A stretch of DNA of 64,000 nt from the IMG/VR virus record IMGVR_UViG_2754412371_000001, positions 1 through 64,000 of that record. One strand, 5' to 3'. The position numbers and the translations under genes were made by a program. Under the pieces are notes generated by a model. The model was not told the origin of the DNA. It saw nothing but the letters and a program-made list of their open reading frames with translations, and did no database searches. Below, piece after piece: positions 6,942 to 63,363 of the stretch (positions within the stretch are counted from its first letter, which is position 1; each line of letters starts with the position of its first letter). Source of the stretch: a virus (taxonomy: Duplodnaviria > Caudoviricetes).

Positions 6942-7261
6942 TACGCCTCCGCTTGCTCAAGCACTGCATCGGCACGCGCGCAGATGGCGCGAAACTCAGC
7001 CTCGGTCGAGTTCCCAAACTCTTCCGAATAGACGGCCTCGCCGCGCAGCGCTTTCAAGGCCGCTACGAGCTCGTCGTGGAGGTTCCAGCACTTCACGAGA
7101 CGGGCGGCGTTCGCGTAGATCTCCTCGTGACTCATGTCCTGGCCGGCGGTCGCCAGGAACAGTTGCGACCGTCCGCTACCGTTCGTGTAGTGATGGACCG
7201 GGCCGCCCCTGACAACGCCGAACCTGCCAAGCTCGAGTTGTCCCTCAGTGTGTTTGGTCAT
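6941..7261 (-). CDS. Phage hypothetical protein
   Basis: MTKHT...ANAARLV..WN.HDELVAALK pattern common in phage early genes. Confidence 0.7.
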   Translation of the reverse strand: MTKHTEGQLELGRFGVVRGGPVHHYTNGSGRSQLFLATAGQDMSHEEIYANAARLVKCWNLHDELVAALKALRGEAVYSEEFGNSTEAEFRAICARADAVLEQAEA

Positions 7262-7271
7262 TGCTTACTTA
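7254..7271. promoter_or_regulatory. Dispersed motif copy TTGGTC-ATTGCT-TACTTA
   Basis: Overlaps the ATG of 6941-7261. Confidence 0.6.
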
Positions 7272-7288
7272 CCCCAACAAACGCAAAT

Positions 7289-7849
7289 TTAAGCTGCCGT
7301 CTGGATGTCGCGCGGGCCGAAGAAGTTGCCCATCTTTCGCGCCGCGAAATACGCTTCCATCATTCGCTCGACGTCATACAGCGCCGCGTGAGCCTGCGAC
7401 GGGTCGTAGTTGACACCGCAGGCGAAGCAGAGCTCGCCGAGGTTGGGCAGCTTCCCGAACGGCGTCGCCCACCGCGCCTCCAGCATCGTGTCGATCCCGG
7501 TGATCTCCGGGACGGCGACGCCGACGCGCTGCAGTTCATGCGTGACGAAGGGAAAGTCGAATCCGAAGCCGTTGTGTGCCACGACGTAGTTGGTGCGCGA
7601 CAGGATCGCCGAAACGTTCGGCGCGACCTGTTCCCACGTCGGCTCGGCGGTGAGCATGTCGAAGGTGATCTTGTGGACGGCCTGCGCCTTCTCGTCGATC
7701 GGGCGTTGCGGATTGACCCGCTGCACGTATTGGCCCAGGCGCGTGCCTACGTCGAGGTCGTAGAGGACTGCAGCGACTTCGATGATCCGATGCCCGTCGT
7801 TCCAGTCGAGCCCCGTCGTTTCCAGGTCGAACCCGGCGATGATTCGCAT
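7289..7849 (-). CDS. DEDDh 3'-5' exonuclease (DNA Pol III epsilon-like)
   Basis: DLETTG (ExoI), VAHNGFGFD (ExoII), HAALYD (ExoIII). Confidence 0.92.
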   Translation of the reverse strand: MRIIAGFDLETTGLDWNDGHRIIEVAAVLYDLDVGTRLGQYVQRVNPQRPIDEKAQAVHKITFDMLTAEPTWEQVAPNVSAILSRTNYVVAHNGFGFDFPFVTHELQRVGVAVPEITGIDTMLEARWATPFGKLPNLGELCFACGVNYDPSQAHAALYDVERMMEAYFAARKMGNFFGPRDIQTAA

Positions 7850-7864
7850 TACGCGCTCCCTATA

Positions 7865-9640: not shown

Positions 9641-10783
9641 TTACGCGAACTCGGTCGCGTTCTTGCGCAAGAGGTAGGCTTCGCTGACGCTCTTGGCGAT
9701 CTTGCGGCCATAGCGCCGGTGGCGCGCTTCGGTCTGACTTTTGACCACAACACCTTCGCGAATGTGCGCGCCACCGATCGTCGTGTTGCCGTCGGTATGC
9801 TTCAACACAACTTCGCGGCTATACGGACCGATGTAGAGCACAGGAACCGACATCACATCCATCGTCTCGCAGAAGTTCTCGAAGCTCTCTGCGTCCGCAA
9901 ACACTGCCTTCTCGCGCACACCCATGCAGATGTCGAAGGCCCGGAACTCGAGCGTGCTCCCGTAGCCGAGATCCTGAATGCCCGTGCCGAAAACTTCACC
10001 GAACATGAGAACCGGAACATTGCCATCGTCAGCAACGGGACCGAGAACTTCAAGGGCCTTGTCGAGCAGCGAGTGCTTCTTTACGGCTTGCGCGTAAACG
10101 TTCGCTTCGTCGTTGTGGTCGAGGATGACACCACGGCCGCCCAAGCCCTTGCTGGTGATGACCACGCGTCCTTTGTAGAACTTCTCGTCCGACATCGACG
10201 ACGGCACGACCGCCACCTGGAGCAGCGTTCCGTGAATCTTCTCGGTAATGACGACCGGCTCCCCATCTTCGAACAGGTTCGGCGTCTTCTTCAGGTTGTC
10301 GAAGTCGTATTTGTGCGTAATGTCCAGATTCGCACCGAGCGCTTTCCCTGCCATGTGCGCCGGAACAACCGGTTCGTATTTCGTCACGCCCAAGAGTTCG
10401 GCGACGTCTTCGCCTTCGAAGCAGAGGTGGGCAACTGCGCCGTCTTCACGCTCGGGGTAGTGCAACACATTGCCTTCCTCGCCACCGAGCGACAGGCAGA
10501 TGCCCTGCGACAGCACGCCTCGAAGCTTGATCGCCTTGATGCGATTGCCGGACGAGCCATGCAGCTTCCCCTTTCCGCTCACCTCGTCCCACATGCCGAG
10601 TTGCTTCAAAATCCACTCGGGCAGCAGCGCTGCCTCCGGAAGATATGCAGCGAGCGCGCCATCCTTGAACTGCCCCTTTCGGACGATCGATTGAAAATCG
10701 CCGACACGGGCGATTTCGATGGCATCAGCGTTGGGGTGCGGTTCGACACGAACGCGCACGACAGGAACTTCGAATGTGCTCAT
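9641..10783 (-). CDS. ATP-dependent RNA ligase (Rnl2-like, DRB0094-type)
   Basis: N-terminal HPNADA.E...VRKGQF..G module; motif I TEKIHGT, FGEVFG, F.AFDI, REGVVVK, IAK.VS..YL. Confidence 0.88.
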   Translation of the reverse strand: MSTFEVPVVRVRVEPHPNADAIEIARVGDFQSIVRKGQFKDGALAAYLPEAALLPEWILKQLGMWDEVSGKGKLHGSSGNRIKAIKLRGVLSQGICLSLGGEEGNVLHYPEREDGAVAHLCFEGEDVAELLGVTKYEPVVPAHMAGKALGANLDITHKYDFDNLKKTPNLFEDGEPVVITEKIHGTLLQVAVVPSSMSDEKFYKGRVVITSKGLGGRGVILDHNDEANVYAQAVKKHSLLDKALEVLGPVADDGNVPVLMFGEVFGTGIQDLGYGSTLEFRAFDICMGVREKAVFADAESFENFCETMDVMSVPVLYIGPYSREVVLKHTDGNTTIGGAHIREGVVVKSQTEARHRRYGRKIAKSVSEAYLLRKNATEFA

Positions 10784-11393: not shown

Positions 11394-11858
11394 TTACAGC
11401 TTCACGCGAGCGGTTTCGCGCAGGGTGTCGGCGAGCTGCAGCGTGGACATTTCGATCAGCATCACCGGGCGGTGACGTGCCGGATCCGCCTTGTGAAGCG
11501 CGCCGGGAATCGCGTGGTGGATGCGCTCGATCTCCGCGACCAGTTCCTCGCGCAGCTTCAGCAGCGTCGACGGGCTGGCGAGCACGGCATGCGGCTCGAA
11601 CATGCAGGAGATCGAGTCGTTCACCATCACGCCGGGGATGTATTCGACGATGTGGCCGGGGAAGTGGCGGCTTTCGAACAGGAACACGCCACCACCTTTT
11701 CGCGACTGCGCGAAGAACGGCGCCTTCTCCGCGTCCGACAGGTTCTCGATTTCACCGAGGATCGTGTAGAGCTTGTCCTCGTCGCTCTTGATACGAATCT
11801 CGTCGGTGCGATTCAGCAGCGCCTGAACGTCGGCGCGGATCACTTCGTTTCCTTGCAT
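11394..11858 (-). CDS. Hypothetical protein
   Basis: 154 aa; SD AAGGA upstream; motif copy just upstream. Confidence 0.75.
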   Translation of the reverse strand: MQGNEVIRADVQALLNRTDEIRIKSDEDKLYTILGEIENLSDAEKAPFFAQSRKGGGVFLFESRHFPGHIVEYIPGVMVNDSISCMFEPHAVLASPSTLLKLREELVAEIERIHHAIPGALHKADPARHRPVMLIEMSTLQLADTLRETARVKL

Positions 11859-11874: not shown

Positions 11875-11892
11875 TAAGTCGTTTGTGACTTA
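11875..11892. promoter_or_regulatory. Motif copy TAAGTC-GTTTGT-GACTTA
   Basis: Perfect arms GATAAGTC/GACTTATC, intergenic. Confidence 0.75.
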
Positions 11893-11921
11893 TCGATATA
11901 GTCACAGAAAATCTTTGGACT

Positions 11922-12149: not shown

Positions 12150-12562
12150 ACCGCCTCCCATCCCTGTTTCAGCATCCCCGCCGCGAATGCAGAGAACTCG
12201 CGCATCGACGTGCTTGCCATCCCGTCCGCAGCGTGGCGAATCATCTTGTCGGGCGACAAGCCGCTGATCGTGAAGCTGGGCTCCCCGAACGTCCATGTCA
12301 GCTTGACGTTGCGTTCACCGCGCCGGAACACACGGACCATCATGTGCGTGCCTTGGTAGCTTTGCTTCGCGGCAGACAGCAGTTCCATCGATTCCTTGCT
12401 CACGATGCCGGCGACACCGCCCCAGAGCCCTTCCAGGGCCATCTGGTAGCCATACGCGCTCAGCTTGCCCTGCTGCACGGCCAGGACCAGGCGCTCAACC
12501 TCATCAGTGACCTTGCGCTCCAGCTCGTCGCGGATCGTCGGAAACTCGCTCGGAGCGCTCAT
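12146..12562 (-). CDS. Hypothetical protein
   Basis: Coupled 138-aa ORF. Confidence 0.65.
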   Translation of the reverse strand: MSAPSEFPTIRDELERKVTDEVERLVLAVQQGKLSAYGYQMALEGLWGGVAGIVSKESMELLSAAKQSYQGTHMMVRVFRRGERNVKLTWTFGEPSFTISGLSPDKMIRHAADGMASTSMREFSAFAAGMLKQGWEAV

Positions 12563-13182
12563 GCCGCAACGGCGACGAGGCCGCCCTTCGGTTGTGCCGC
12601 GCGCTTGATGACACCGACCTTCACTCCCGCTTTCTTCAGCGCGTTGTTCAGGTCGGTGGCGATGACTGCCGGGAGAGCCGGTGCAGGCTTCTCCAGATTG
12701 TGCGGGAGGAAGTTCACCGACTCCGGCCAGATATCAAGCAGCTTTTTGACCGTGGTTGCCGAATAGACCATCCCGCGGATCGAAGTCCGGAGCTCGTCGA
12801 ACTTGGCTTCGAGCTCATCATGTGCCCGCTGATACGCGTCCCTCTTTGCGACGAGCGACTTGTTCGAGATATTCAAAAAGGTTCCGCCACCGCGCTTGAA
12901 AGGAACGATTTTCGGCAGGTCGACGTTGCTGTAATACGCGATGCGGCTGCCGTTTTCGTCACGAAAATTCAGCGTGACCGCGTTCGACATCGTCAGGAAC
13001 TCGACGGGAGCACGGCGCGCCGCTGTCTCTTCTTCCTCGCTCACCTGCGAGCGATAGCACGCCATCGCGAGATCCTGAAGTTGCTTCGCCACAGCCTTCT
13101 TTTCTTTCTCGAAAGCGCCCTTCATCGCGTTCGCGATGATCTGGTCACGGACGTGGTTGCTCAGCTTGACGTTGGTCGACAT
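12559..13182 (-). CDS. Nmad5-like (nucleotide-modification-associated domain 5) protein
   Basis: KLSNHVRDQI..NA N-terminus and TTVKKLL..WPE...LP C-terminal signature. Confidence 0.65.
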   Translation of the reverse strand: MSTNVKLSNHVRDQIIANAMKGAFEKEKKAVAKQLQDLAMACYRSQVSEEEETAARRAPVEFLTMSNAVTLNFRDENGSRIAYYSNVDLPKIVPFKRGGGTFLNISNKSLVAKRDAYQRAHDELEAKFDELRTSIRGMVYSATTVKKLLDIWPESVNFLPHNLEKPAPALPAVIATDLNNALKKAGVKVGVIKRAAQPKGGLVAVAA

Positions 13183-15082: not shown

Positions 15083-16032
15083 ACCGTGCGCGTCAATGCC
15101 TGGATCTCTTCACGAGCAACGTGGACCTCCACGTCCTCGCGATACTGCTTCCAGCCCCGGAAATTTCGACTACGCTCCATGCCTTTCAAGAGCGGGGATG
15201 CCTGGTGCTCGGTCGGGCTCGCATGCAGTGGCTTGCTGCCGACGAGCAGGTTGTAACGCTCCAGCTCCTTCTCGGGTGCCGCGTTGCCGTCGAAAGGCTC
15301 GTAGGAAACGCGGGCGCAGCGCGCGGTCGAGATTTTCTTCAGCACGTCGAGTCGGATCAGCTCACGCTCGGAATCGAGCACATACGGCAGGTGCCACGCA
15401 TCGGGGTCGCCCGCGTTGCCCTTGCGAACGATGGGAGTCGACTGATCCATCGCCGCCTTCATCGTGCGAGCGAGGTCTTGAATCTCCGGTTGCGCGTCCG
15501 CGTGGTCGCGCAGCTCGAAGAAGTTGTGCCAGTCGGTCGCGGTAACCAGGACGTTGATATATTGGAACGGCTCGAGCAGGCGGTTCACCAGCTGCTTGTG
15601 ATATCCCGCCTTCGCGAAGGCTTCCGCATTTGCTGCGGCGTCGAGAGCCGCAAGACGCCACGCTTCCTGCGGGGAGGCTTCGGTCGTGCCGAAACGAAAC
15701 AGCGGCTCGTCCGACGGGTTGTCGAATTCGTCGTAGACGCCAACCAGAACCGGAGAGTCGATCTCGGCGCCCGCCTGCATGCCGCGCTGGTTTGCGCCCC
15801 AATGAATCGGGCCGGCCGGGTCGGTGCACACTTGCTCGATGATCTTTGCGATGGGGATCGCTCGCGACGAACCGGCGTTCCGGCTGAACACGCGGTGCGT
15901 CATGAATTCGGCGTGGATCGCTCGCCAGTAGCGCAGCTCCAGCGTCGTGATGCGTGCGTCGTTGTTCATCGTGTTCGCGACGCTGTCCGCGATCACGCGC
16001 ACGCGACAGCCCTTTCCGTTCAATTCGATCAT
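15079..16032 (-). CDS. thyX: FAD-dependent thymidylate synthase
   Basis: EFMTHRVFSRNAGSSR; HKQ..NRLLEPF; FFELR...AQPEI; ARCARVSY. Confidence 0.88.
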   Translation of the reverse strand: MIELNGKGCRVRVIADSVANTMNNDARITTLELRYWRAIHAEFMTHRVFSRNAGSSRAIPIAKIIEQVCTDPAGPIHWGANQRGMQAGAEIDSPVLVGVYDEFDNPSDEPLFRFGTTEASPQEAWRLAALDAAANAEAFAKAGYHKQLVNRLLEPFQYINVLVTATDWHNFFELRDHADAQPEIQDLARTMKAAMDQSTPIVRKGNAGDPDAWHLPYVLDSERELIRLDVLKKISTARCARVSYEPFDGNAAPEKELERYNLLVGSKPLHASPTEHQASPLLKGMERSRNFRGWKQYREDVEVHVAREEIQALTRTV

Positions 16033-16421: not shown

Positions 16422-16439
16422 ATAGTCATCGATTACTTA
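16422..16439 (-). promoter_or_regulatory. Motif copy ATAGTC-ATCGAT-TACTTA abutting -10 TATAAT
   Basis: - strand GTAAGTAATCGATGAC-TATAAT. Confidence 0.75.
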
Positions 16440-16462
16440 CTTTCACCGAGAAAATGAGGGGC

Positions 16463-17715: not shown

Positions 17716-19977
17716 TTACTGGCAGGACGTGCAGTCGGGGTTCGTCACCGAGCAGAGCCCAGCCCCCACTTCCGCTTCCATCATGTCCTGAGCGGGCGCT
17801 TCAGCCGGCGCATCGACCGTCTTCGCTTGCTCTGCGCTCTGCGTGCGGAGGTAGTAGGTCGTCTTCAGGCCCAGCTTCCACGCGAGCATGTAGAGGGCCG
17901 ACAGATCCTTGCCCTTCGTGCCGGCCTTAATCCAGATGTTCGTGGATTGCGCTTGATCGATCCATTTCTGCCGGCGGGCCGCAGCCTTCACGATCCACGT
18001 AGGGTCAATTTCGAACGCGGTCTTGATCGTGTCCGAGAAGCGCAGCGACGGCGCGATCACGAGGAACTTGCCGCCCATGTTCTTCTTGGACGAGAAGCGC
18101 TCGAAGTTCGGCTCGATACAGGGTGATGCGCCCACGATGTTGCTGATCGTCGCGGTCGGCGCAATCGCCATCGTGTTGCTGTTGCGCATCCCATACGACA
18201 TGACGCGGTTGCGGAGCTCGACCCACTTTCCGGGCATCGTCATCGACTGGTCACGCGCCGTGTGGATCGGAAGAATGCCCTGCGACCACTTCGAACCCTC
18301 GAACGTGCTGTATGCGCCGCGCTCGACAGCCAGGTCACACGACGCGCTGATTGCTTCATACGACAGCCGCTCCAACAGCTCGTCGTTTAGATCGAGGCAG
18401 GCATCCGACTCCCAATCGATGCCCTTCTGCGCCATCAGGTCGGACAAACCCATCAGCCCCAGGCCCACCGGGCGGTGCCGCATGTTGGCTGCCCTCGCCC
18501 GGTCGCTCGGGTAGAAGTTGATATCGATCACGTTGTCGAGCATCCGCATGCCGGTCTTGATGACGCGGTGAAACAGCCTCGGGTGGTCGAACGGGTTGAC
18601 GCGGCCGACGTTAACCGAACCGAGGTTGCACACGAACGTCTCGTCTTCCGAGTTGTTCAGAACGATCTCGGTGCAGAGATTCGAGTTGTGGACCACACCA
18701 ACGTGTGACTGCGGATTCCGACGATTGCACTCGTCCTTCCACGTCATCCACGGGTTACCCGTCTCGAACAACGCCGTCAGCATGTCGCGCCAGAGCTTGA
18801 TCGCTTCAACCTCGCCAACGTATGCGCCGGCCGCCTCCAGCTCCTCGTAGCGCGCCTTGAACGCATCGCCATAGAGCTCATGCAGGTCCGGGTGCTGCGA
18901 CGGATCGAAGAAGCGCCACATGCCGCGGGCTTCGACTCGCTCCATGAACAGGTCGGGGATCCAGTTGGCCGGGAAGATATCGTGGGCACGCTCGTGCTCG
19001 TCGCCCGTGTTCTTGCGCAGCAGTAGGAACTTCGGCAGGTCCGGGTGCCAGGTTTCCAAATACGGCGCGAAGCTGCCCTTGCGCTTACCGCCCTGATTCA
19101 CGGCGACCGCGGTGTCGTTGTAGACCTTCAGATAGGGGACGACGCCCGAGCTTTTTCCATTCGTGCCCTTTATGTGGGCGCCGGCGCCGCGAACCGGGGT
19201 CCAGTCCGTGCCGATGCCGCCGGCATACTTCGACAACAGCGCGCATTCCGTGATCGCGCCATAGATCGAATTGAACTCGTGCTCGCCCTCGTCGGCGACG
19301 ATCGAGTCGCCCACCTTGTTGCCGTAGCAAGACGACATTTGCTGATGCAGCGTGGCGGAGTTGAACAGCGTCGGCGTCGACGACACGAAGTAGAACTGCG
19401 ACAGCACGTGATAGAACTCGATCGCGCGCTCGGTCGGATCGTCTTCGCGCAATGCGAGGCCCATCGCGACACGCATCCAGAAATGCTGCGGCATTTCGAG
19501 AATGCGGCCGTCAGGCGTCTCGCGGATGAAGTAGCGATCCGCGAGGGTCTGCAAACCCAGATAGTCGAACAGGTCATCACGGTCCGGGCAAATTGCCGCG
19601 TCGAGCGCCTCCAAGTCAAAACGGCCGTCGATCAGATCCGGGGAGAGCTTCTGCGCACGCACGGCCGAAGCAAGATATCCCGCGAGGCGCGGATAGTGAA
19701 TCGAGTTGTGCGATTCCTTGAAGATCTGCTGCTTCAGGAGGCGGGCCGCTACGAACGTGTAGTCCGGGGCTTCCGTGCTGATGAGGCCAGCCGCGGCGAG
19801 GATCGTCGCGCGGTGAATGTCGGCGGTCGAGATACCGTCGAAGAACATTTGGCCGATGCTGGTTTCCAGCTCCGACTGCGAGACGTTCAGGCCGGCGCAG
19901 GCCCAAGCAGTTGCTTTTTGGATCTTCTCGATCTGGAGCGGCTCGCGGGAGCCATCACGCTTTACGACTTCTTGCAT
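17716..19977 (-). CDS. nrdA: Ribonucleotide reductase class I alpha subunit with ATP cone
   Basis: VVKRDG ATP cone; TPTLFN; SNLCTE; APTATIS; KTTYY; C-terminal CxxC. Confidence 0.96.
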   Translation of the reverse strand: MQEVVKRDGSREPLQIEKIQKATAWACAGLNVSQSELETSIGQMFFDGISTADIHRATILAAAGLISTEAPDYTFVAARLLKQQIFKESHNSIHYPRLAGYLASAVRAQKLSPDLIDGRFDLEALDAAICPDRDDLFDYLGLQTLADRYFIRETPDGRILEMPQHFWMRVAMGLALREDDPTERAIEFYHVLSQFYFVSSTPTLFNSATLHQQMSSCYGNKVGDSIVADEGEHEFNSIYGAITECALLSKYAGGIGTDWTPVRGAGAHIKGTNGKSSGVVPYLKVYNDTAVAVNQGGKRKGSFAPYLETWHPDLPKFLLLRKNTGDEHERAHDIFPANWIPDLFMERVEARGMWRFFDPSQHPDLHELYGDAFKARYEELEAAGAYVGEVEAIKLWRDMLTALFETGNPWMTWKDECNRRNPQSHVGVVHNSNLCTEIVLNNSEDETFVCNLGSVNVGRVNPFDHPRLFHRVIKTGMRMLDNVIDINFYPSDRARAANMRHRPVGLGLMGLSDLMAQKGIDWESDACLDLNDELLERLSYEAISASCDLAVERGAYSTFEGSKWSQGILPIHTARDQSMTMPGKWVELRNRVMSYGMRNSNTMAIAPTATISNIVGASPCIEPNFERFSSKKNMGGKFLVIAPSLRFSDTIKTAFEIDPTWIVKAAARRQKWIDQAQSTNIWIKAGTKGKDLSALYMLAWKLGLKTTYYLRTQSAEQAKTVDAPAEAPAQDMMEAEVGAGLCSVTNPDCTSCQ

Positions 19978-20015: not shown

Positions 20016-20033
20016 TAAGTCAGCGTTAACTTA
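20016..20033 (-). promoter_or_regulatory. Motif copy TAAGTC-AGCGTT-AACTTA abutting TATACT
   Basis: Upstream of nrdA. Confidence 0.7.
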
Positions 20034-20098
20034 TCTTCCAGACCAAATAAAAAGTCGCTGAGCGACCCTTGATTTCAGTGTAGTTTGGCGGGGCTGCT

Positions 20099-25182: not shown

Positions 25183-25200
25183 ATAGTCAGTGCTGACTTA
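25183..25200 (-). promoter_or_regulatory. Motif copy ATAGTC-AGTGCT-GACTTA abutting TATAAT
   Basis: Contains the stop codon of the hydrolase gene. Confidence 0.75.
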
Positions 25201-25648: not shown

Positions 25649-25666
25649 TAGATCACTTGCGACTTA
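25649..25666. promoter_or_regulatory. Motif copy TAGATC-ACTTGC-GACTTA
   Basis: Upstream of cell wall hydrolase. Confidence 0.55.
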
Positions 25667-39367: not shown

Positions 39368-39449
39368 CAGGCTTCCCTCAGGCCCACAATTTGGGCTATC
39401 AACTCATCGAATTTCAATTATCACCACCCACTTATGGCAAGTCAGCACA

Positions 39450-39677: not shown

Positions 39678-39860
39678 GAAGCGTTCCTTGAATGATTGAG
39701 TTCTTCGTATCGTCCGCATGTTGATAAGCGGTTACTTATATTATAGACCGATACAGTCAGGATCAGACAAGTTTTGTGACGCTCCAGATACATGGGAAGC
39801 CAGGGCATCGAAACGACTGCCGATAGTTCCTTCGTTGGGCGCTACTAGACCCACTATAAT

Positions 39861-45305: not shown

Positions 45306-45323
45306 ATAGTCACCGATTACTTA
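45306..45323 (-). promoter_or_regulatory. Motif copy ATAGTC-ACCGAT-TACTTA abutting TATAAT
   Basis: Contains the primase stop codon. Confidence 0.75.
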
Positions 45324-46429: not shown

Positions 46430-47830
46430 TTATGCGAAGCCGAGCACCTTGGTAATGAACTTCATCCGGTCCATCGCCTGCTCGATCTCAATCGTGAATT
46501 CCCCGCCTTGGTTTCGCGACGCCGCGAAATACAACCGAGCCCGGCCCGCTGCGCGCTCTTCTTCGGTGCGGTTGATCGAAATGATGATGTCTGCGATACG
46601 GACCTTGTTGAAGTCTTCAGCGACGTGCTCGGCCTTGATGACGTTCGCGTTCGCACCAATCCGGTTCGACTGCGTTGCGGTCAGCACCGCGAGCCCTTCT
46701 CGGATCGCCAACCCGCGCAGGTCAACGTAGACCGACTTGGAATTCTCGATCGCGGAGTCAGTGACACGCTCCGGCGACATGATGTCGGCGTAGTCGACGA
46801 TGACCAGATCGAAAACGATGCCCTGCTGCTTGAACCGCTCGATACGCCGACGAAGCTCCGACACCTTCAGCGAGCCGGTCGGGAACTCGTCGATCATGAA
46901 CTTCGCGTTCGTGCCGTCGGCGCGCCGCGCGCGGTCTGCGAACAGGCGAACCTTGTCGCGGACTTCGTGCGTGTGCGCCCCGAGCTCCATCATTGCCTGC
47001 TCGGCGATGTTGGCGTCCATCCGGTCGGAGATCACCTCCCGCGAGACTTCACACGACGCGTAGTAGACGTTGTGGCCGGCGGCCCAAGCACCGATGCCGA
47101 AGTCGATCAGCGCGGTCGTCTTGCCCGCCTTCGCAGCGCCCAGTAGCACCGACAGCTCTTTGCGGCCCCAGCCGCGGTGATAGAGCAGATCGTCGATCAC
47201 CCGGTAGCCGGTCGTGATGCCTTGCGGCGGCAGCTTGCCCGACGCGCGCTCCAGACGGATGCCGGTGCGGTTGTCAATCGACGCCGCAAAATCGTAGGTG
47301 TCCCCCTCTGCGTTCGCGCCGACGTTCAGCGCCGTCTGCATGAGCTTCGAAATGCCGTCGAAATCGTTGCGGTCGAGCTTCGGGATCGCCTTGAACATCG
47401 CAGCCTGCATGGCCTGATGCCGAGCGAACGTCGCAACCTGATCGACCACGAAGTCGCGGTCGGAAATGTCCGTCTCGAACAGATTCTTCAGGTGAGCGAT
47501 CGCCGCAACGCCGAGCGCTTTCGGCAGCACTTTGGCGTCCAGGTCTTCCCGCAATAGCATTGCGTAGATGCCGATGTTTGCCGGTGCCTTGCGATACTTG
47601 CTCCAGTAGCGCAGCGCGACGCTGACAAGATAGGACTCGATCTCAGACTCGAAATGCCCCGGCTCGACCAGCCCATCAACCATCTGGTTGAAGGACGTGT
47701 CACGCAGGGTAAGGGCCGCAATACGCGACTGAAAGTCACCGTCGAACTGGAACTTGCTCATCGGCGGCTCGGCCGCTTCTGCGGCCGGCGTCGTCGACGG
47801 CACTGCTGACAATGCCACCACGCTCATCAC
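46430..47830 (-). CDS. dnaB: DnaB-like replicative helicase
   Basis: ITTGY..ID; GAAKAGKTT; IVDYAD; TATQSNR; AASRN. Confidence 0.9.
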   Translation of the reverse strand: MMSVVALSAVPSTTPAAEAAEPPMSKFQFDGDFQSRIAALTLRDTSFNQMVDGLVEPGHFESEIESYLVSVALRYWSKYRKAPANIGIYAMLLREDLDAKVLPKALGVAAIAHLKNLFETDISDRDFVVDQVATFARHQAMQAAMFKAIPKLDRNDFDGISKLMQTALNVGANAEGDTYDFAASIDNRTGIRLERASGKLPPQGITTGYRVIDDLLYHRGWGRKELSVLLGAAKAGKTTALIDFGIGAWAAGHNVYYASCEVSREVISDRMDANIAEQAMMELGAHTHEVRDKVRLFADRARRADGTNAKFMIDEFPTGSLKVSELRRRIERFKQQGIVFDLVIVDYADIMSPERVTDSAIENSKSVYVDLRGLAIREGLAVLTATQSNRIGANANVIKAEHVAEDFNKVRIADIIISINRTEEERAAGRARLYFAASRNQGGEFTIEIEQAMDRMKFITKVLGFA

Positions 47831-48210
47831 TGCACCGCCGACGTATCGCTGTCCTGGGGCACGCCGAAGAACTGTTCGATCGCATGCTTGTAGAACACGC
47901 GACGAATCAGACGCGTCGAGTCCTTCGGATGCTTGGTCAGCAGCGTGATCGTATATTTGTCGCGGCCTGTCACCAGCCCTTCGAACGTGACGTCACCCGT
48001 AGTGATGATCGTGGCGAGCTGACGTTCTTCCTGCATCGCCTTGAGGATGGCATCGTGACCCTTCGGCGGGCGTGCGGTGGCACGCGGGCGCTGTTCCCCA
48101 TACTGCGGACGAGCGACACTGCCCGTGCGGCTTTCGAGCGTGCGATGCTCGAGCGTAATCATTCGGCGGCCGGCGTTGATCTGTTCTTGGCGAGCTTGCT
48201 CGGGGGTCAT
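47827..48210 (-). CDS. Hfq/Sm-like RNA chaperone homologue
   Basis: D..L.......I..G....G.V...D.YTI.L (Sm1-like) and VFYKHAI (Hfq Sm2 YKHAI). Confidence 0.72.
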   Translation of the reverse strand: MTPEQARQEQINAGRRMITLEHRTLESRTGSVARPQYGEQRPRATARPPKGHDAILKAMQEERQLATIITTGDVTFEGLVTGRDKYTITLLTKHPKDSTRLIRRVFYKHAIEQFFGVPQDSDTSAVQ

Positions 48211-48234: not shown

Positions 48235-48273
48235 AAAATTAGCGATGACTTAATTATAGTCATTGCTTACTTA
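48235..48273 (-). promoter_or_regulatory. Tandem motif copies (48256-48273 strong, 48235-48252 half) flanking TATAAT
   Basis: Upstream of hfq-like/dnaB/primase. Confidence 0.75.
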
Positions 48274-50923: not shown

Positions 50924-50959
50924 AACATCGCCGATGTTATCCGGAAACATCGGCGATGT
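50924..50959. repeat. Double palindrome ACATCG(C/G)CGATGT x2, forming a 14-bp inverted repeat / terminator
   Basis: 50925-50937 and 50947-50959; followed by TTTG on the - strand. Confidence 0.75.
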
Positions 50960-50977
50960 ATAGTCATTGCTTACTTA
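50960..50977. promoter_or_regulatory. Motif copy ATAGTC-ATTGCT-TACTTA
   Basis: Same 20-mer as 48255-48274; upstream of lysis cassette. Confidence 0.75.
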
Positions 50978-51002
50978 CTATATAAACTACACGAACGAGC
51001 TA

Positions 51003-51790: not shown

Positions 51791-54700
51791 TTAGTTGTTG
51801 CGGAGCCATGCAAAACGGACCCAGCAACGGTTACCGCCTGCAAAGCCGATACCATTCATGATCCACGGGCTATCTCGACGAATCCAAAATTGCGTGCCTT
51901 GGGTCATATCGTAGGGGCCAACTTCTTCGAGTGCCACAATCGGGCACTGCGCGCCACGGTCGGCGCGGTTCAACTGCGCGTCATTCGCTTTGTTCCATGC
52001 GTCATCGAGCTTTCCCATGTCGTCGGACAGCCAGCGGCCGCGATAGCCTTGCCAGAGGTTCCCGTCAGTCTGTAGCGTCGCCCCGCCGACGTGCAGGTTT
52101 CCGCCCTGCCACGTCTCGCCATCGTTGCTAACGTTCCACGGCACGCCGTTGTAGGCGCTGTTGATGACTTCGAGGCCACCGCCGTCACGTGCACGCAGGT
52201 ATGTCCACGAGTCGTAGCCTGGTCGGTTGTTGTGCAGCCCAATGTCGGCCTGCCAGCCGGCGCGATCGAGAGTGATTCGATCGCTGAAATACGTCACCCC
52301 GTTGGCGCGCAAGTTCATGATGGTCGCGGAGTTGTCCGTGCCATTTACCGTGATGACGTTGGCACGCCAAGAGCCATCCGGGTTCATCGTCGCCCAGGAG
52401 GAGTAACCGTATGCGCCGCCGGTGCTCATCGAGCCGTGGAGCCATGCGAGCGCGGTGTTATCCGGGCGAGCGAACACTGCGCCGGCAGCCGTCGAATTGT
52501 TCGGCGCACGCACGCGCAGATCGCTCGTGAGGGTGTCGCCTGACTTGTGGACGAAAGTGTTGTCCAGGAACGTGCGAAGCCACTGACTGCCCCACTGCGT
52601 TCCCCAGACGTTTCCATCTGGTGCAATTGTGGCGTTGGTGCCGCTCGCGTATGAGACGCCACCCACCATCAGGTTGCCGCCTGCGGTCGCAACACGAGCG
52701 TCCTTGCTAACCGTCAGCACCCCCGATACACCAACGTCCCCTCCGAGCGTAGTCCCCGCGCCCGTGCTGTCGATCGAGACATAGCCGGTTGAGAGATTCC
52801 ATGCAAACGGCCGATAGCCATTCCACAACCCAGATTGGTCCCCGCTCGCCGTCTGCAGGAAATAGACGTTAGCTCCGTCGTTTCGGAAAAAGGCCCCGTA
52901 ATTGCCAAACACAACCCGGAAGCCATTCGAATCCGATGTTCGCACGTCCCCCGTGAATCGGCCCTTGCCGGAGACTTGCAGCAGCGTGGAGCCATCGTCG
53001 GTCGCAGTCCCGATCAGAACGCGTCCACCCCAAGGTGCAAAGGCGATATTCTTTTTGGTCGTGTTAGCCTTATTGAATACCTCAAGCGTCGCACCACCGG
53101 ACCAGTTCGACGTGGATAGCGTGACCTGCGTGTCGTTTGCGCCGTAGTAGGTCGAGACGGCGTTCGCAAACATGCCCGACCCAGCTACTTGCAGCAGGTT
53201 GGCGCCGTCGTCAGTCAACGTTCCGACAAGGACGTGTCCGCCATTCTGCATCAGCATCATGTTGCCGACGTTAGATCCGGAGCCGCGCGTGATACAGAGC
53301 GCGTTCTGCGCAGCGGAATATGCATCGTTAGTGGCTCGAATGGAGAACGCGCCATCGCCACCCTGCATCAACTCCCACTTCTTCTGGTCGGCCGGTGCAC
53401 CATCCCGCGAGAGGATTACTGACGTTTGGCCCGTGCCCCCGCCGTTCGAGGCAATGAGAGCGCCGATGCTATTCATGCCCCTTACCGTGCCAGCAACCTG
53501 GAGCAAGTCACCGCCGTTGTCGGCTGTTGTCCCGATCAAAATCCGGCCGGATGCGGTCACCCGAAGTCGCTCGGCATTGGCAGATACGAGGCCAACGTAG
53601 CCGGACGCCCCCGCCGAGCCTACAAGCGCATTGCCTTGCCCATACACGTAATACGCGTTCGCATCGGCGTTGATCCACGCTTTTGCGGAGGTCTGACCGA
53701 AGTATGAGACGCCGTAGAAATATGTGTTGCCAGCAACCTGCAGCAGGCTTGAGCCATCATCGGAAGCGGTCCCGATAAGGACACGACCAGAATTCGTAAC
53801 GCGCATGCGTTCGGTCAGTGCGCCGGCCGCACCGTTGCCGGCCGGACGCGTCAGGAATGCCAACCCGCCTTGGTCATAGCTGCCGCCGCTGTATTTATTG
53901 TCCAACACCCCCTTCACCTGCGACATCGGTGCAGAACCGACGTTTGCGGCGAACGATACCGCGCCGCCCATGCCAGTTGTGTTGCCGCCGGCTACAGCGA
54001 GAAGACCGGTTCCATTCCCTCCAGCGCTGTAGACCTGAACCGCGTTCGCCCCGTCATCAGTCGTCATGCCGATCAGCATGCGACCAGAAGCGACGAAGCG
54101 CGCACGCTCGGCAAATGCCGTGCTGAATACCAGCGATCCGGCACCGATCGTTCCAGAGCCGTAGAACGCGATATTGGGGCCGTTGGAATTGTTGAACCCG
54201 AACAGACCTGAGTCCCCCGTAGCCTGGCTGTTGATGAAGTAGTTGCCAGCACGGACACCGCCGCTTACCTGAAGCGAGTTGACTCCATCATCAACGGTCG
54301 GGCCTACCAGAACATTGCCGCCCTGACTGATCGCCAGTTTAGTAGCGCCCAGGATTTGGAAATTCAGACCAACGTTGCCGCCGGTTACCGCGCTATTGTT
54401 TGCATCGGTCGTTGCGTTGATGGTCAGAGGGCTCGCATTCGACGCGACCGAATACGAGTTGATGGTGTTCAAGACGGATGCCCCGAGCACGATCTTCTGG
54501 GCCGACCCGAAGCGCGAAACCAGCAGACTGTTATTGACTTGCAGCGTTGTCGAGCCGTCATCGGTCATCCCCGTGCCGACGAGCACCCGCCCACCAAACG
54601 TCATGCGCATCACACGACCTTGCTTCGAGTCGTAGCGCCCATCATTGCCGGCGTTGTTGAGGCAGAAGTCGAGGTATTCGGTCCCCCACGTCCCGCCATT

Positions 54701-56308
54701 GAACCCCGCACGGAGCGAAGCAACGAGTCGATTGCCCGTATCGGACGTGGTGCCGCCAAACGTGCCACCGAGCCGAATTTTCCCTTCGCGATTGAGTGCA
54801 CCAGATGATCCGCGAGCTTCCAGGTGCGCCGTCGTGTCAGTCGTGACCGCATCGATGACGACCGGCCCGGTGAACGGCGAGCTACCATCGAGCTTGGCGT
54901 AACCGCTTACTGCCGTCTGGGCCTGTGCAGCACTATTGGCCGCTGCTGATGCACTGTTCGCTGCATTCGTTGCGCTCGTCGCCGCGCTGCTTTGCGAGGC
55001 GGCCGCAGCACTGGCTGAATTCGCCGCATTGGTAGCACTCGTTGCAGCGGCGGTCTTCGACGAGTTGGCCGACGATGCGCTGCTCGCTGCGGCAGCAGCG
55101 CTGTTGTCCGCGGCAGTGGCCGATCCGGCAGCCTGGGATGCGCTCGCGGTTGCGTTTGCCGCCATCGCTTCGGCGGTCGCGTCTTGGTCTTGCCAGCCAG
55201 TGCTGGTGTAGACCCGCATCTGGTTAGTCGTGGTGTTGAAATACTCGCAGCCCACGACGAGCGGGTTGCCGTTGTTGTCCTTGGTCGGGTCGGCAGACTG
55301 CTTGCCCAGATACAGGGCGTTCATTGTGGTCAGGATGCCCTGAACCTGCGTGAGCACGCTACTCGCGCTCGATGCCGATGCGCTCGCCGCGCTCGCCGAG
55401 CCAGCAGCGGCCGTGGCCGAACCGGCAGCAGCGGTTTCCGAGTTCGCAGCATTGGTTGCGCTCGTGGCCGCAGCGGTCTTCGACGACGCGGCGCTCGTTT
55501 CCGACGCCTTTGCATTCGTCTCGCTGGTCTTCGCGTTCGTCTCAGACGTCTTGGAATTTGACTCCGATGCCTTGGCGTTCGTTGCGGACGCTGCTGCGGC
55601 GCTCGCCGAGCTTGCAGCATTTGTCGCGCTGTTTGCTGCGCTGATAGAGCTTGCTGCAGATGCAGAAGCAGAAGAACCCGCGTTCGAAGCGCTGTTCGCG
55701 GACGACGTGGCGGAGTTCGCAGCCGCGGTCGCCGACGCAGCCGCGTTCGTCTCACTTGTCATTGCGTTGGCCGCGCTCGTTGCAGCAGCAGACTTGCTCG
55801 CCGCAGCCGCACTTGAACTGCCTGCCGCTGCAGTCGCGCTGCCGGCTGCATTCGCCGCACTGTCCGCGGCCGCGCCGGCCGCTGCGGCCGCAGCGGCCTC
55901 TGCCTGCTGCGCGCCGTTCAGACTGGCGTGGATTTCACTGATCGACGCGGCGAAACCTTCAGGGCTGACCTCCTTGATCATGTCCTGGATCTGATACATC
56001 GCCTTCGTGAAGATCGCGGCGGTGCCGACATCGCCCTGCGAAAGCGTCGGAAGGTTGTCCGGCACGGTGAAGTCCGTTGCAACAGCGCAATCAAGACCGA
56101 TACCACCCTGCCCTTGATAGACACCGGCGAGCGTGAACTTCGTGCTCGTGCCATCGAAGGTCGCGTCGGCGGCAACCACATAGGGCACATACTCCCCAAC
56201 GATCAGGAAAATATTGTTCGCCCGAATGCGGTATGCCACGTTCTGACCGGGCAACGTAACGGTCTGACCGCCGTTGTCGATCGAACATTTGACCTTGAGT
56301 TGTGCCAT
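51791..56308 (-). CDS. Long tail fibre protein
   Basis: Ala/Ser ASETNA repeats; seven G(R/N/H)hLhG..(D/N)DG..hQV modules; DGNVWG..W tip motifs; followed by chaperone. Confidence 0.88.
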   Translation of the reverse strand: MAQLKVKCSIDNGGQTVTLPGQNVAYRIRANNIFLIVGEYVPYVVAADATFDGTSTKFTLAGVYQGQGGIGLDCAVATDFTVPDNLPTLSQGDVGTAAIFTKAMYQIQDMIKEVSPEGFAASISEIHASLNGAQQAEAAAAAAAGAAADSAANAAGSATAAAGSSSAAAASKSAAATSAANAMTSETNAAASATAAANSATSSANSASNAGSSASASAASSISAANSATNAASSASAAAASATNAKASESNSKTSETNAKTSETNAKASETSAASSKTAAATSATNAANSETAAAGSATAAAGSASAASASASSASSVLTQVQGILTTMNALYLGKQSADPTKDNNGNPLVVGCEYFNTTTNQMRVYTSTGWQDQDATAEAMAANATASASQAAGSATAADNSAAAAASSASSANSSKTAAATSATNAANSASAAAASQSSAATSATNAANSASAAANSAAQAQTAVSGYAKLDGSSPFTGPVVIDAVTTDTTAHLEARGSSGALNREGKIRLGGTFGGTTSDTGNRLVASLRAGFNGGTWGTEYLDFCLNNAGNDGRYDSKQGRVMRMTFGGRVLVGTGMTDDGSTTLQVNNSLLVSRFGSAQKIVLGASVLNTINSYSVASNASPLTINATTDANNSAVTGGNVGLNFQILGATKLAISQGGNVLVGPTVDDGVNSLQVSGGVRAGNYFINSQATGDSGLFGFNNSNGPNIAFYGSGTIGAGSLVFSTAFAERARFVASGRMLIGMTTDDGANAVQVYSAGGNGTGLLAVAGGNTTGMGGAVSFAANVGSAPMSQVKGVLDNKYSGGSYDQGGLAFLTRPAGNGAAGALTERMRVTNSGRVLIGTASDDGSSLLQVAGNTYFYGVSYFGQTSAKAWINADANAYYVYGQGNALVGSAGASGYVGLVSANAERLRVTASGRILIGTTADNGGDLLQVAGTVRGMNSIGALIASNGGGTGQTSVILSRDGAPADQKKWELMQGGDGAFSIRATNDAYSAAQNALCITRGSGSNVGNMMLMQNGGHVLVGTLTDDGANLLQVAGSGMFANAVSTYYGANDTQVTLSTSNWSGGATLEVFNKANTTKKNIAFAPWGGRVLIGTATDDGSTLLQVSGKGRFTGDVRTSDSNGFRVVFGNYGAFFRNDGANVYFLQTASGDQSGLWNGYRPFAWNLSTGYVSIDSTGAGTTLGGDVGVSGVLTVSKDARVATAGGNLMVGGVSYASGTNATIAPDGNVWGTQWGSQWLRTFLDNTFVHKSGDTLTSDLRVRAPNNSTAAGAVFARPDNTALAWLHGSMSTGGAYGYSSWATMNPDGSWRANVITVNGTDNSATIMNLRANGVTYFSDRITLDRAGWQADIGLHNNRPGYDSWTYLRARDGGGLEVINSAYNGVPWNVSNDGETWQGGNLHVGGATLQTDGNLWQGYRGRWLSDDMGKLDDAWNKANDAQLNRADRGAQCPIVALEEVGPYDMTQGTQFWIRRDSPWIMNGIGFAGGNRCWVRFAWLRNN

Positions 56309-56347: not shown

Positions 56348-56365
56348 TAAGTCATTGCTGACTTA
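56348..56365 (-). promoter_or_regulatory. Motif copy TAAGTC-ATTGCT-GACTTA filling a TTGTTG-N17-TATACT spacer
   Basis: Upstream of tail fibre. Confidence 0.75.
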
Positions 56366-56390
56366 TCAACAAGGCACTCACATATTCTGC

Positions 56391-62900: not shown

Positions 62901-62989
62901 TCAATCTCGTAGAGCGGATCCAGCGGGTTGACGATGCGCCGGACGTTGATGACCTGCGCCAGTTCGCTACTCTGCATGCTGATACTCAT
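56945..62989 (-). CDS. Tail tip / host-specificity protein J (with N-terminal gpI-like segment)
   Basis: PVPV.YG; GEGPI; NPAW..YD; FnIII-like region; EQTARA.AD.ALS.RID repeats; DUF1983-like YTVKID.NGYVAGFGL. Confidence 0.9.
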   Translation of the reverse strand: MSISMQSSELAQVINVRRIVNPLDPLYEIETEHWAYRPGATLADYLPLVLAEEVVVSRNGGIVESKDFGLVYPQPDDFIVLCPIPRGGGGFKGIFRMIAMVAVAIVAPELAGALVSLGGIGLAAAVGSAGLTAITAAVTVGITVAGSLLINAIMPPPTPTNSSNNSLASSSTYGADGAKNTSAEGLPVPVCYGSFQMAGNIIGAYTENVDNSQILYMLINAGEGPIASISNIRLNDRDISEFKEVAVQTRMGDPTQGVIDWFSKVIVPHSKNQILPHDSSYLQFSTSDSVEQIRLDFTFPAGLFALDRNSGDMQSNTCVIEADYRLVGATDWTPFSATRPSYANVKIRPKVYRGGFLGNDYPIDPDDKITDFAVVYSDSNTDVDSSLVTALKNQYWNYVGRPYSTWISAFGGMWISTSISIPGRGGALIVTEKMRSTVRRSYFTPQLSLGKYEVRVRRNENYTDWSSGNPRVIRGQPITGDTSQSECYITDLNEIVYEGVAYNHTALVALRVQMDSQLSGIPSVTFTNGGRLIATMTRDKGVIQTAQSANANPAWVYYDMATNGRYGPGFSPDRLDMDSLFEWAEFCDANGLTFNAVLDQTMNFWDASAYVLRVGHAQVITVGTRYYIAIERASDPVMMFGMGNIMQDTFKQTWLGTVDRATEVDVTYFDRTDGYREKTVKVTNPDSVLEGQNQNASAITLYGVVDIKRAYMEGAFQLNLNRYLQLTCEWQSPVESIACAPGDVVLVQHDMPAWSESGRTAVGSSNSIIKLDKLVKMEAGGRYRLLVLSNTVTRGTSVIQAITGTFVQVANGTPSGRLMRMTNGSGTDVGITNVLPDGVYVESTAGLSVGQPVTFIDTDVVEEHDVVLAPGQTDTIQLVSPMSYAPGPFINYMFGKTEKVKKPFRIKGVTLGSTDFHRTITAIEYRPEVYDLTQYEEVYGSLEVPSIDPSQGVISAVQNLTIYEETFVSGTQILTNVRAAWANPVVGAYAGADIHLSINGAAPVLADTVRGDTSYLVKGLNKGDTVTVRAVAYDVWGKRASYDQSPTVTYKVVGSVSNLAVADVTGVNFIWAGKDLKLFWNYNSTTQSFEFGSEPNGADSGSLDPHFLDYEVRIYDHSHKLLRVEHTRDNNYIYTYEKNVADGTHRRVTVEIAVRDVFNNVGRPAVMDAYNPPPTVVSANQSADYDRVTISYTHSDDTDFAGAAIYLSDDPNFVADSTTLVYQGPDSSVLLPNLMFNHDYYYVLVPFDAFGMDETIPTPKFKFHTPFMDVNAIADGVLNGSKLIPELQQRIDLVDGNGLGSVNQRVQEALDAANKAIAAASATSAAATKDALDAEAAARKVAEGALTAAITTEQQTRQAADDSLSSQVQSVTARVDQNAAAIQTEQTARANADSSLSTRIDTVVATTNNNTAAITSEQKARTDADSALSTRIDTVTASVASANAAIVNEQTARANADSANASSISSVQAQLGNALLFRVSSNGALAVGAAATGLYNAVSGVKLQGGARSYNVATIDATGAVTTRGSFDVFSSTAARDNLVTLLNGLPNTVTVVVWTFDEPQGNLAGALQTALVRCGATNAVLSQIKYRSAYILVGVPGSNEGSGTELYAGAIDSDAKAFLTYTFQVLNGRPVATAGGQLPMVIQASVTSETNARVAADGALGSRIDAVVASAAGNTAAITSEQTARASADSALSTRIDTLSSTVGSNTAAITTEQKTRSDADSALSSRIDTLASSVSSNTAAITSEQTARANGDSANAASITNLTTTVNGHTTTIQQQASSINGLNAQYTVKIDNNGYVAGFGLASTTVNGVPTSEFAVRTDTFSVNLPGYAGVHPFTIGAVYGQPKVIISSALIGDASIDNAKIGDLQVNTAKISDGAITSAKIQYAAIQAAHIGEAQIDTLRIGLNAVTTGVYWETTSGSNYGSGFTYRSTGNPVLFIFCGLSTSAFGGVLSVDGKQLGAYIGGRTNAQNNVSGGLALPTYGCCSANLPPGDHSVSITGDIHYVIYAIEFKR

Positions 62990-63353
62990 AGAACCCGAAA
63001 ACCCTCTTGCTCTTTTCCCAATCTGAAAGCCGCTCGATCGTCACGCCGCCGGTCTTGTCCCATGCGTGGATAAAGCGGCTTGCGTCGATGACATAGCCGC
63101 AGTGGTTGATGTGGCGCCCCATCCGGAAAAGCACGCAGCAGCCGGGCTTCGGCCCGTCGAGCTTTTTCCAGAAGACACGGGCGCACGCCATCATTGCCCC
63201 GATGCGCGCGGCATCCCCAGACACCCCGTAGTCCGGCGGCCGCTTGCCCGTGGCCTGCTCCGTGAGGTGCATCACCAGCCCGTAGCAGTCGAACGAATCA
63301 GGCCCGCGACCGCCGAGCTCAAAGGGGACGCCGAGAAGATCATGATAAGTCAT
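62967..63353 (-). CDS. NlpC/P60 tail assembly protein (gpK-like)
   Basis: G.PF..GGRG...FDC.GL; HCG..I....FIHA. Confidence 0.88.
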   Translation of the reverse strand: MTYHDLLGVPFELGGRGPDSFDCYGLVMHLTEQATGKRPPDYGVSGDAARIGAMMACARVFWKKLDGPKPGCCVLFRMGRHINHCGYVIDASRFIHAWDKTGGVTIERLSDWEKSKRVFGFYEYQHAE

Positions 63354-63363
63354 TTGTGACTTA
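63346..63363. promoter_or_regulatory. Motif copy TAAGTC-ATTTGT-GACTTA
   Basis: Contains the ATG of the NlpC/P60 gene. Confidence 0.7.

Follow-up and report, generated by a model that had tools for sequence, protein, structure and literature searches.

A palindromic site dispersed at gene junctions of a 93-kb Burkholderia-type prophage, and a candidate repressor that may read it

What is the function of a short palindromic word that stands at the head of gene after gene in a single large prophage, and which protein reads it? The question is raised by the tailed-phage record IMGVR_UViG_2754412371_000001 (IMG/VR), 93,312 bases long with a G+C content of 0.607, whose first 64 kb form the window analysed here. 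The element is a Burkholderia-type prophage of 93 kb, and our own gene caller placed 105 of its 115 genes on the minus strand. A first-pass annotation of the window had described about 20 copies of a polar motif at gene junctions, several of them fused to a −10 box without a −35 hexamer, and had proposed that one phage protein controls early and late modules through it, with the motif acting as a master operator or as a promoter element. Of these two functions the master operator is the better supported, and a general role as an activator promoter is not. The sites are probably the dispersed operators of one master repressor, most likely a dimer of the XRE-type helix-turn-helix protein encoded at 39933-40427, which would silence the lytic genes; the patterns of sequence and placement that point this way are set out below.

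The site and its placement

On the coding (minus) strand the motif reads R-TAAGTMA-N4-TGAYTWA, an 18-base-pair (bp) palindrome (7-4-7 inverted repeat) with the invariant core AGTMA-N4-TKACT and mostly purines at spacer positions 10-11. The pattern originally proposed, allowing up to two mismatches, gave 22 strand-matches in the window against 0.08 expected from shuffles. Scanning the whole 93,312-base element with a weight matrix at a threshold of 8 bits revealed 39 places above the threshold, about 30 of them strong, and the 63 strand-hits compare with a shuffle mean of 4.3 and a maximum of 11. All 16 copies first described as clear are present at the positions given, and the estimate of about 20 rises to about 30 over the whole element, with at least 10 further sites past the window, at 69545-90552. 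The five copies described as weaker fared unevenly: that at 36284 is strong, those at 39861, 48235 and 39721 are real though degenerate, and that at 39417 is marginal (scores below).

Strong sites are intergenic in 30 of 31 cases, the sole exception being 36284, which bears out the observation that copies lie nearly all at gene junctions. The end of a site falls between −9 and about 100 nucleotides (nt) from the next start codon, and about 50-60% of the gaps of 40-200 nt between genes carry one. Replication, nucleotide-metabolism, tail, head and packaging genes are preceded by sites, so that early and late modules are both headed by the motif, as the annotation had it. The polarity that it noted is also evident. 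On the coding strand the upstream arm (TAAGT) is almost invariant and the downstream arm degenerate, and family-wide the strong arm lies upstream at 223 sites and downstream at 61, a count that uses codon-usage gene calls because a strand map drawn from the longest open reading frames (ORFs) was misleading (20:14). Part of this polarity follows from the downstream arm doubling as a −10 box. Fused hybrid sites are found in the replication half of the element (16-51 kb) and more symmetric sites in the structural half (56-90 kb). The sites of the window, all on the minus strand, are:

7254-7272, minus: GTAAGTAA-GCAA-TGACCAA, at the start of gene 6941-7261; 28.0 bits
7865-7883, minus: ATAAGTAA-ATAG-TGAACTA, followed after 14 nt by the RNase T-like exonuclease gene 7289-7849; its first T is the last base of a TGTAAT hexamer
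11875-11893, minus: near-perfect palindrome, 15 nt before gene 11394-11858; 27.7 bits
13254-13272, minus: GTAAGTAA-ATAG-TGACCCA, then ATCCGAG-N11-TATACT, 70 nt before gene 12559-13182
16422-16440, minus: fused to −10 (TGACTATAAT), with a leader of about 190 nt behind
20016-20034, minus: palindrome ending TGACTTATACT, with the ribonucleotide reductase gene 17716-19977 starting 37 nt on
25183-25201, minus: fused to −10 (TGACTATAAT), 48 nt before gene 24585-25133; T-run upstream
25649-25667, minus: degenerate site ATAAGTCG-CAAG-TGATCTA, 42 nt before gene 25198-25605; 24.8 bits
30474-30492, minus: fused to −10 (TGACTATAAT), 98 nt before gene 29250-30374, whose orthologue is preceded by a site in 3 of 4 genomes
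36284-36302, minus: strong site within the CobS-like gene; the sigma-like gene 35173-35829 follows 453 nt downstream; 26.9 bits
37108-37126, minus: before the CobS-like gene, whose orthologue is preceded by a site in 4 of 4 genomes; the 3' arm overlaps −35-like TTTACA, then 18 nt and TATTAT
39416-39436, minus: marginal site before the CobT gene; 9.5 bits
39721-39739, minus: putative degenerate operator in the switch region; TATAAT upstream (then A), ATG of the small ORF downstream; 13.7 bits
39861-39879, minus: putative switch-region operator, 54 nt ahead of the XRE start codon; TGcTAGAAT downstream on the plus strand; 21.3 bits
43825-43843, minus: palindrome at the start of the DNA ligase gene
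45306-45324, minus: fused to −10 (TGACTATAAT), 29 nt before gene 44802-45275
48235-48253, minus: degenerate second site directly behind the TATAAT of 48256, forming a tandem pair; 19.0 bits
48256-48274, minus: fused to −10 (TGACTATAAT), heading the Hfq-like/DnaB/primase operon
50960-50978, minus: GTAAGTAA-GCAA-TGACTAT-ACA, with a 14-bp hairpin directly behind
56348-56366, minus: perfect palindrome ending TGACTTATACT, 38 nt before the tail-fibre gene 51791-56308
63346-63364, minus: perfect 20-bp palindrome ATAAGTCA-N4-TGACTTAT, upstream of the block with a 2014-amino-acid tail protein; 32.6 bits

The intragenic site at 36284 could be an internal control point for the sigma-like gene. The hairpin behind the site at 50960 (50925-50959, minus strand; a 14-bp stem, then TTTGT) begins at the base next to the site and could form an attenuator or leader structure behind a putative promoter. 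Both ends of the element (1-7000 and 84500-93312) hold genes mostly not common to its relatives, among them the integrase gene 292-1275 in the left end, and carry no or very few palindromes: none in the left 1-7 kb and few in the right, where most of 84.5-93 kb is without them. Site-poor ends are as expected for cargo or lysogen-expressed genes.

Specificity and distribution of the site

The pattern TAAGTMA-N4-TKACTTA (at most one mismatch) occurs at 13 places in the 93-kb element and at 1-3 places in each of five chromosomes of 6.6-9.1 Mb, a number equal to that of a control pattern; these chromosomes were from Burkholderia, two Paraburkholderia, Mesorhizobium and Pseudomonas putida, plausible host genera or hosts of relatives. 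Site density in the element is several hundred times that of the host-type chromosomes, where the pattern stands only at control level, so the site is element-specific. A host regulon was rejected on the counts in these five chromosomes, and the motif is not equally frequent in host-type DNA, the first ground on which the first-pass annotation would have been refuted. The exact 19-mer GTAAGTAAGCAATGACTAT had no match in the genome contigs searched.

DNA-level searches found no close relative of the element. Its DnaE protein groups it, at 37-45% identity, with Rhizobium phages B1VFA and RHEph10, Pseudomonas phage nickie, Stenotrophomonas phage ANB28 and the SSU5-type phage-plasmids. A published study connects the SSU5 supercommunity with RHEph10, with nickie and with the Acinetobacter 'AB' group (PMC7969092). 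Per genome, 20-45 copies of the site are found in related phages, prophages and phage-plasmids, whose sizes are 87-122 kb and whose G+C contents are 41-66%. An exact 16-base palindrome used as a query brings up many viral contigs of 80-118 kb, each with several copies. Five related IMG/VR genomes gave 12-34 matches per strand, with 0-1 for controls, and a complete relative, G001, has 49 sites. The intergenic share is 84-97% in four genomes and 84-95% in three complete relatives (G+C 0.44, 0.66 and 0.58). Counts of the core AGTMA-N4-TKACT were 26 in an Acinetobacter baumannii phage-plasmid, 23 in a Cupriavidus plasmid and 7 in RHEph10, while Rhizobium phage B1VFA has the core 33 times, as AGTAAG..CTTACT. 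In some lineages the outer bases are altered (ACAGTCA, ATAGTCA, TCAGTCA) and the core is kept. Orthologous genes whose proteins share no more than 40-60% identity are still preceded by sites in 3-4 of 4 genomes; they include CobS, 75774-77330, 83868-84434 (a ParB-N protein) and the 300-amino-acid gene 73797-74699. The site is thus common to the whole phage family, phage-plasmids included.

Two groups depart from this pattern. In enterobacterial SSU5-type genomes the core AGTCA-N4-TGACT is nearly absent, with 1-2 copies per genome. One of their number, Escherichia phage Cyrano (OV696614.1, 1-50000), has RTAAGTA-N2-6-TACTTA at gene junctions on the coding strand, often after ATAG. The half-site word RTAAGTA common to both suggests that the two site types derive from one ancestor. 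No sites were found in nickie, Stenotrophomonas phage ANB28 or Xanthomonas phage JGB6. Nickie (MG018927.1, 41981-69382) has a recurring intergenic layout of its own, for example at 10086-10175 and 15409-15480 of that region, in which a −10-like CATAAT, TACAAT or TTTAAT is centred in an inverted repeat whose arms are specific to each place, often after CCCC(A). Some of these repeats resemble terminators and have a T-run behind them, which several others lack. Nickie carries neither the XRE protein nor the palindrome.

A duplex site rather than a hairpin

A 7-4-7 inverted repeat at gene junctions could act as a hairpin in RNA (a 5'-end stabiliser, a processing site or a terminator) or be extruded in DNA, and some relatives have a −10-like box 3-5 nt upstream of it, which would put the site at the 5' end of the message. 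We counted covariation over 115 oriented sites from four genomes. Watson-Crick pairs occur at the column-frequency expectation at all arm pairs, and none of the seven shows compensatory variation; at pair 6-13, for instance, 63 pairs were observed and 66.5 expected, with 47 mismatches uncompensated and 5 compensated. The commonest variant, TAAGTAA...TGACTTA, which is the preferred form in relative G003, sets A opposite G. There is also no T-run behind the site, and the fused class has half of the palindrome upstream of any start site. We rejected the hairpin on the covariation count, and consider it highly improbable. The two half-sites start 11 bp apart, one helical turn, and this spacing, together with the independent variation of the arms, argues for a duplex site read by a dimeric helix-turn-helix protein.

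Relation of the site to promoter boxes

The −10 boxes had been described exactly: on the minus strand five sites read TGACTATAAT (16422, 25183, 30474, 45306 and 48256) and two TGACTTATACT (20016 and 56348). The reported lack of a −35 hexamer is roughly right, since the best −35 match of the fused class is 3-4 of 6 bases, slightly over the null. The fused arrangement recurs across the family at one fixed register, where 46 of 82 distinct TKACTAT arms form part of a TATAAT or TATACT. Direction could be assigned to 44 fused −10 boxes: 42 point towards a gene start, which in 41 cases is 21-191 nt away. On these sequence patterns the fused subclass is a real, directional promoter with a predicted operator across −27 to −10, the dyad being centred near −18.5 and covering the spacer and the −10 box.

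This fixed register, together with the orientation towards genes, the weak −35 boxes and the polarity of sites with respect to transcription (223 to 61, as above), is what would be expected if the site were a positive promoter element, through which a phage protein (the XRE protein as an activator, or another) recruits host RNA polymerase or plays a dual role. In P1 late (Lpa) and T4 middle (MotA) promoters, the analogy drawn in the first-pass annotation, the activator's element takes the place of the −35 box at a fixed distance from the −10 and serves one temporal class. The fused class resembles these promoters in its TGAC-TATAAT, its dyad near −18.5 and its good −10, but most sites of the element are unfused, their positions vary and all modules carry them. 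Fused sites make up about a quarter of the total here and roughly a tenth family-wide.

Elsewhere, two other arrangements are seen. In the second, the last base of a −10-like hexamer is the first T of the site or stands a few bases upstream of it, so that the site would cover the predicted start point; examples are 39721, sites in relative G002 of the form GCGAAA-N17-TATAAC-aga-site and many sites of G001 that lie 10-26 nt before an ATG. In the third, the site abuts a −35-like box, as at 37108 (TTTACA-18-TATTAT). No single offset between −10-like hexamers and the site dominates, and the geometry differs from site to site. A fixed activator contact cannot serve sites that lie downstream of or across a putative −10 in some places and beside a −35-like box in others, and since the geometry to predicted boxes is not fixed it fits a repressor and not a positioned activator. 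Early and late modules are headed alike, with no single temporal class, and virulent-looking relatives with the same lytic modules have no sites. Furthermore, a dyad near −18.5 would place the bound protein over the spacer and −10, a position from which sigma-70 is normally hindered; an operator across these elements is a classic arrangement for occluding polymerase. The activator analogy is therefore not supported as a general mechanism, as the offset varies, several modules are involved and relatives run their lytic modules without the site; a positive promoter element appears unlikely, though it may apply to the fused subclass.

Only the fused class, at offset 16, can be called a promoter on the sequence patterns seen, and we do not suggest that every site is borne by one. 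A scan for the sigma-70 consensus over 36.5-56.5 kb showed no enrichment, with 4 matches found and 4.8 expected. Promoters of the T7/SP6 type, for single-subunit RNA polymerases, were considered for a loose likeness to the motif and set aside, because Pfam searches found no phage RNA polymerase among the element's proteins. A further word, ATCCRAG, is followed 10-11 nt on by a −10-like hexamer at 7904, 13252 and 37103 (minus strand), all intergenic, and in two of these three places lies directly downstream of a palindrome. ATCCRAG-N10-(−10) was set aside as a second promoter class, since at most four intergenic copies with a −10-like box behind them (7904, 13252, 37103 and perhaps 35126) are too few to judge it by.

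The XRE protein as candidate reader

Three genes around the start of the leftward early operon bear on the identity of the reader:

39933-40427, plus: XRE-type helix-turn-helix protein of 164 amino acids (weak Pfam HTH_3), the proposed master repressor
39450-39719, minus: small ORF (75-89 amino acids), which by its gene position opens the leftward early operon
35173-35829, minus: divergent sigma-70-family (ECF-like) protein (Pfam)

The early operon runs in the order small ORF, CobT, CobS, sigma-like gene, DnaE. The XRE gene is divergent from it, in the position of cI in lambda, and the small ORF occupies that of Cro, so that the early operon begins with what resembles a cI/cro-type switch. The order CobS, CobT, small ORF (56-89 amino acids), divergent or adjacent XRE gene, and then an integrase, ParA or replication gene is kept from Burkholderia-type prophages to elements of A. 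baumannii, Cupriavidus, Rhizobium and E. coli. Homologues of the XRE protein were found in 871 plasmid and 19 phage records, and that of phage Cyrano is annotated as a 'putative repressor'.

Presence of the XRE protein follows that of the site. A homologue is found in G001-G004 and in all of the tested genomes that bear sites; nickie lacks one, and no match was found in ANB28 or JGB6, these being the three genomes with 0 sites. Among 54 loci retrieved with the XRE protein, 46 hold at least two sites, with a total of 286 sites and 19 for the control. The 500 nt upstream of the XRE gene are the richest in sites, with 1.58 per kb compared with about 0.2-0.4 elsewhere, and some relatives have 5-6 sites in the intergenic region upstream of the gene.

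The weak likenesses of the protein to solved structures point to repressors of this fold. A profile of its homologues matches the 'immunity repressor' 8bny at 1.6e-5, and the AlphaFold model (pLDDT 89) is all-helical, with helices at residues 23-30 and 36-43 and a long C-terminal helix. Weak fold matches include Stl, DdrO, lambda cI, 434 Cro and P22 c2, and SinR is also among the nearest solved relatives by sequence or fold (weak). We detected no LexA-like cleavage domain, and the weak likeness of the model to Stl is compatible with inactivation by an anti-repressor. The recognition helix spans residues 36-43, with N36 and M40 invariant. Residue 43 varies with position 8 of the site, Q occurring with C in 12 and R or K with G in 14 distinct sequences, with 3 exceptions, a tracking that is suggestive only. 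The raw table is strong, yet we rejected coevolution of these positions as proof, since it holds only 1-5 independent contrasts. No clean pattern links the outer bases (TA, TC, AC) to the helix; loci L149 and L150 have the same helix and a different outer base.

Of the two proteins that the first-pass annotation had put forward as the single reader, the XRE protein fits, by co-occurrence and by the density peak, and the sigma-like protein does not. The sigma-like gene directly follows CobS in 64 of 80 related loci, and a profile of its family found it in G002, G003 and in loci L209 and L256. The same search found none in the complete genome of G001, in the nickie region or in the first 50 kb of Cyrano. 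With 49 sites in G001 and no sigma-like protein, this candidate was rejected; furthermore, a dyad of half-sites 11 bp apart does not fit the −35/−10 layout of ECF factors.

The operator could also be read by some other protein: the small ORF, an uncharacterised core protein, a ParB-like protein, the winged-helix protein 79851-80270 or a host factor. Room for such a reader is left by the purely correlative case for the XRE protein, by several conserved core proteins in which no domain can be recognised and by some XRE-positive loci with few canonical sites. The named candidates do poorly, however. We rejected the winged-helix protein, which has a 45%-identical homologue in nickie, where there are no sites; the small ORF is a weaker candidate, in which no DNA-binding domain was detected and which is little conserved; the sigma-like gene is missing from G001. 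A host factor is unlikely because the same core is found in elements of alpha-, beta- and gamma-proteobacterial hosts with G+C contents of 41-66%, and chromosomes stand at control level. A reader other than the XRE protein therefore seems improbable to us, and the XRE protein is most likely, on this correlative evidence from sequence, the one that reads the site.

Proposed mechanism

In the mechanism that we favour, XRE dimers would sit on one operator at the head of most lytic transcription units and on two to three in the switch region. At fused promoters the bound dimer would cover the −10 and the spacer; at other sites it would cover the start point or a −35-like box, or stand in the path of read-through transcription. 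Host RNA polymerase would in this way be kept off all lytic operons at once in lysogeny, and the bound repressor may also block read-through transcription in the manner of stoperators (below). Loss of the repressor would release all modules together, and any temporal order after that could be set by the sigma-like factor or by operators of unequal strength.

Several observations weigh against this account. Close to the sites, −10-like hexamers (5 of 6 matches) show no preference for the coding strand, with 39 on the non-coding and 29 on the coding strand, and none is seen once the fused class is set apart. The −35 boxes of fused promoters are weak, as an activator model predicts, and a simple symmetric repressor would not need the strong polarity. 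With regard to the protein, the XRE-negative relatives are distant (about 43% DnaE identity), so that the absence of sites may only reflect divergence. Not all XRE-positive loci are rich in canonical sites, and enterobacterial SSU5-type relatives carry an XRE homologue with the shorter palindrome RTAAGTA-N2-6-TACTTA. The Pfam HTH_3 match of the XRE protein (E = 7e-4, 19.9 bits) lies below the 23-bit gathering threshold, and the link between residue 43 and position 8, having only 1-5 independent phylogenetic contrasts, is not significant.

A bolder version, in which the XRE dimer silences the lytic operons and in addition halts elongating polymerase or fires the −35-less fused promoters, would make it a two-way module; we think this quite unlikely. 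If true, one protein and one 18-bp word would run a family of 90-120 kb viruses across alpha-, beta- and gamma-proteobacteria, and, should the second function be an elongation block, the module would be a dimeric, palindrome-reading proteobacterial counterpart of the mycobacteriophage stoperators.

Comparison with known systems

That one repressor can act through many dispersed operators is a principle already known from P1 and the cluster A mycobacteriophages. In P1, operators of the immunity repressor C1 are spread in large number over a genome of about 90-100 kb and overlap lytic promoters; the operator is described as an asymmetric 17-mer, and C1 is not known to be of the XRE helix-turn-helix type. 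As in P1, the element has one type of site dispersed at the heads of lytic operons and no single early control region, and both belong to the wider phage-plasmid world. It differs in its 18-bp dyad, its XRE-like candidate and the presence of an integrase (292-1275). The likeness to P1 C1 would be one of mechanism and not of ancestry.

The stoperators of cluster A phages, read by L5 gp71 and the TipsytheTRex repressor, comprise more than 20 repressor sites in short intergenic spaces with an orientation that follows transcription; they are 13-bp asymmetric sites, bound by a monomer via two domains, and block elongation in one orientation only (PMC9283540). The sites of the element are likewise intergenic (84-97%) and polar (223 vs 61), but they are 18-bp dyads with two equivalent half-sites, which implies a dimer. 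By ancestry the element belongs to neither the P1 nor the stoperator family. The SSU5-type elements such as Cyrano share with it the neighbourhood of CobS, CobT, small ORF and divergent XRE gene, the half-site word RTAAGTA and the position of sites at the head of gene blocks. Their arms lie closer together (TAAGTA-N2-TACTTA), the AGTCA-N4-TGACT core is, as noted, nearly absent, and the recognition helix of their XRE protein reads NANNLSLIK, as against N-[MLIV]-[IML]-[TSA]-M-[LFI]-K in the site-bearing family. A comparable polar intergenic repeat, of unknown role, has been described in T1 and phage Stevie (PMC4319613).

A literature search, with most subscription journals outside its scope, found no description of the site or the regulon and no account of how elements of this family are kept silent or become active. 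Among its members are phage-plasmids of bacteria from clinical and agricultural settings (Acinetobacter baumannii, Cupriavidus and Rhizobium), while those in Klebsiella, E. coli, Salmonella and Yersinia have the variant site. An 18-bp word and a named candidate protein make the silencing question directly testable. The site is also a sequence signature by which members of the family can be recognized and the starts of operons predicted, and it points to a possible means of inducing such elements or locking them.

Other genes of the element

Pfam identified a ribonucleotide reductase, an SbcC-like ATPase, RNA and DNA ligases, DnaB, a primase, CobS-like and CobT-like proteins, a tail fibre and the 2014-amino-acid tail protein. 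The large ORFs are those for DnaE, ribonucleotide reductase, the SbcC-like protein, the tail fibre and the J-like tail protein. Three further genes referred to above are:

292-1275, left end of the element: tyrosine integrase (Pfam)
31175-34534, minus: DnaE-type polymerase (Pfam)
47827-48210, minus: Hfq-like protein (Pfam Hfq, 26.6 bits, just below the 27-bit cut-off)

The Hfq-like gene opens the DnaB-primase operon, behind the putative tandem operator pair 48256/48235. The DnaE-type polymerase aligns over its full length with DnaE of related phages and carries a C-terminal domain of the UDG superfamily (PF03167, residues 967-1099, E = 3.9e-13).

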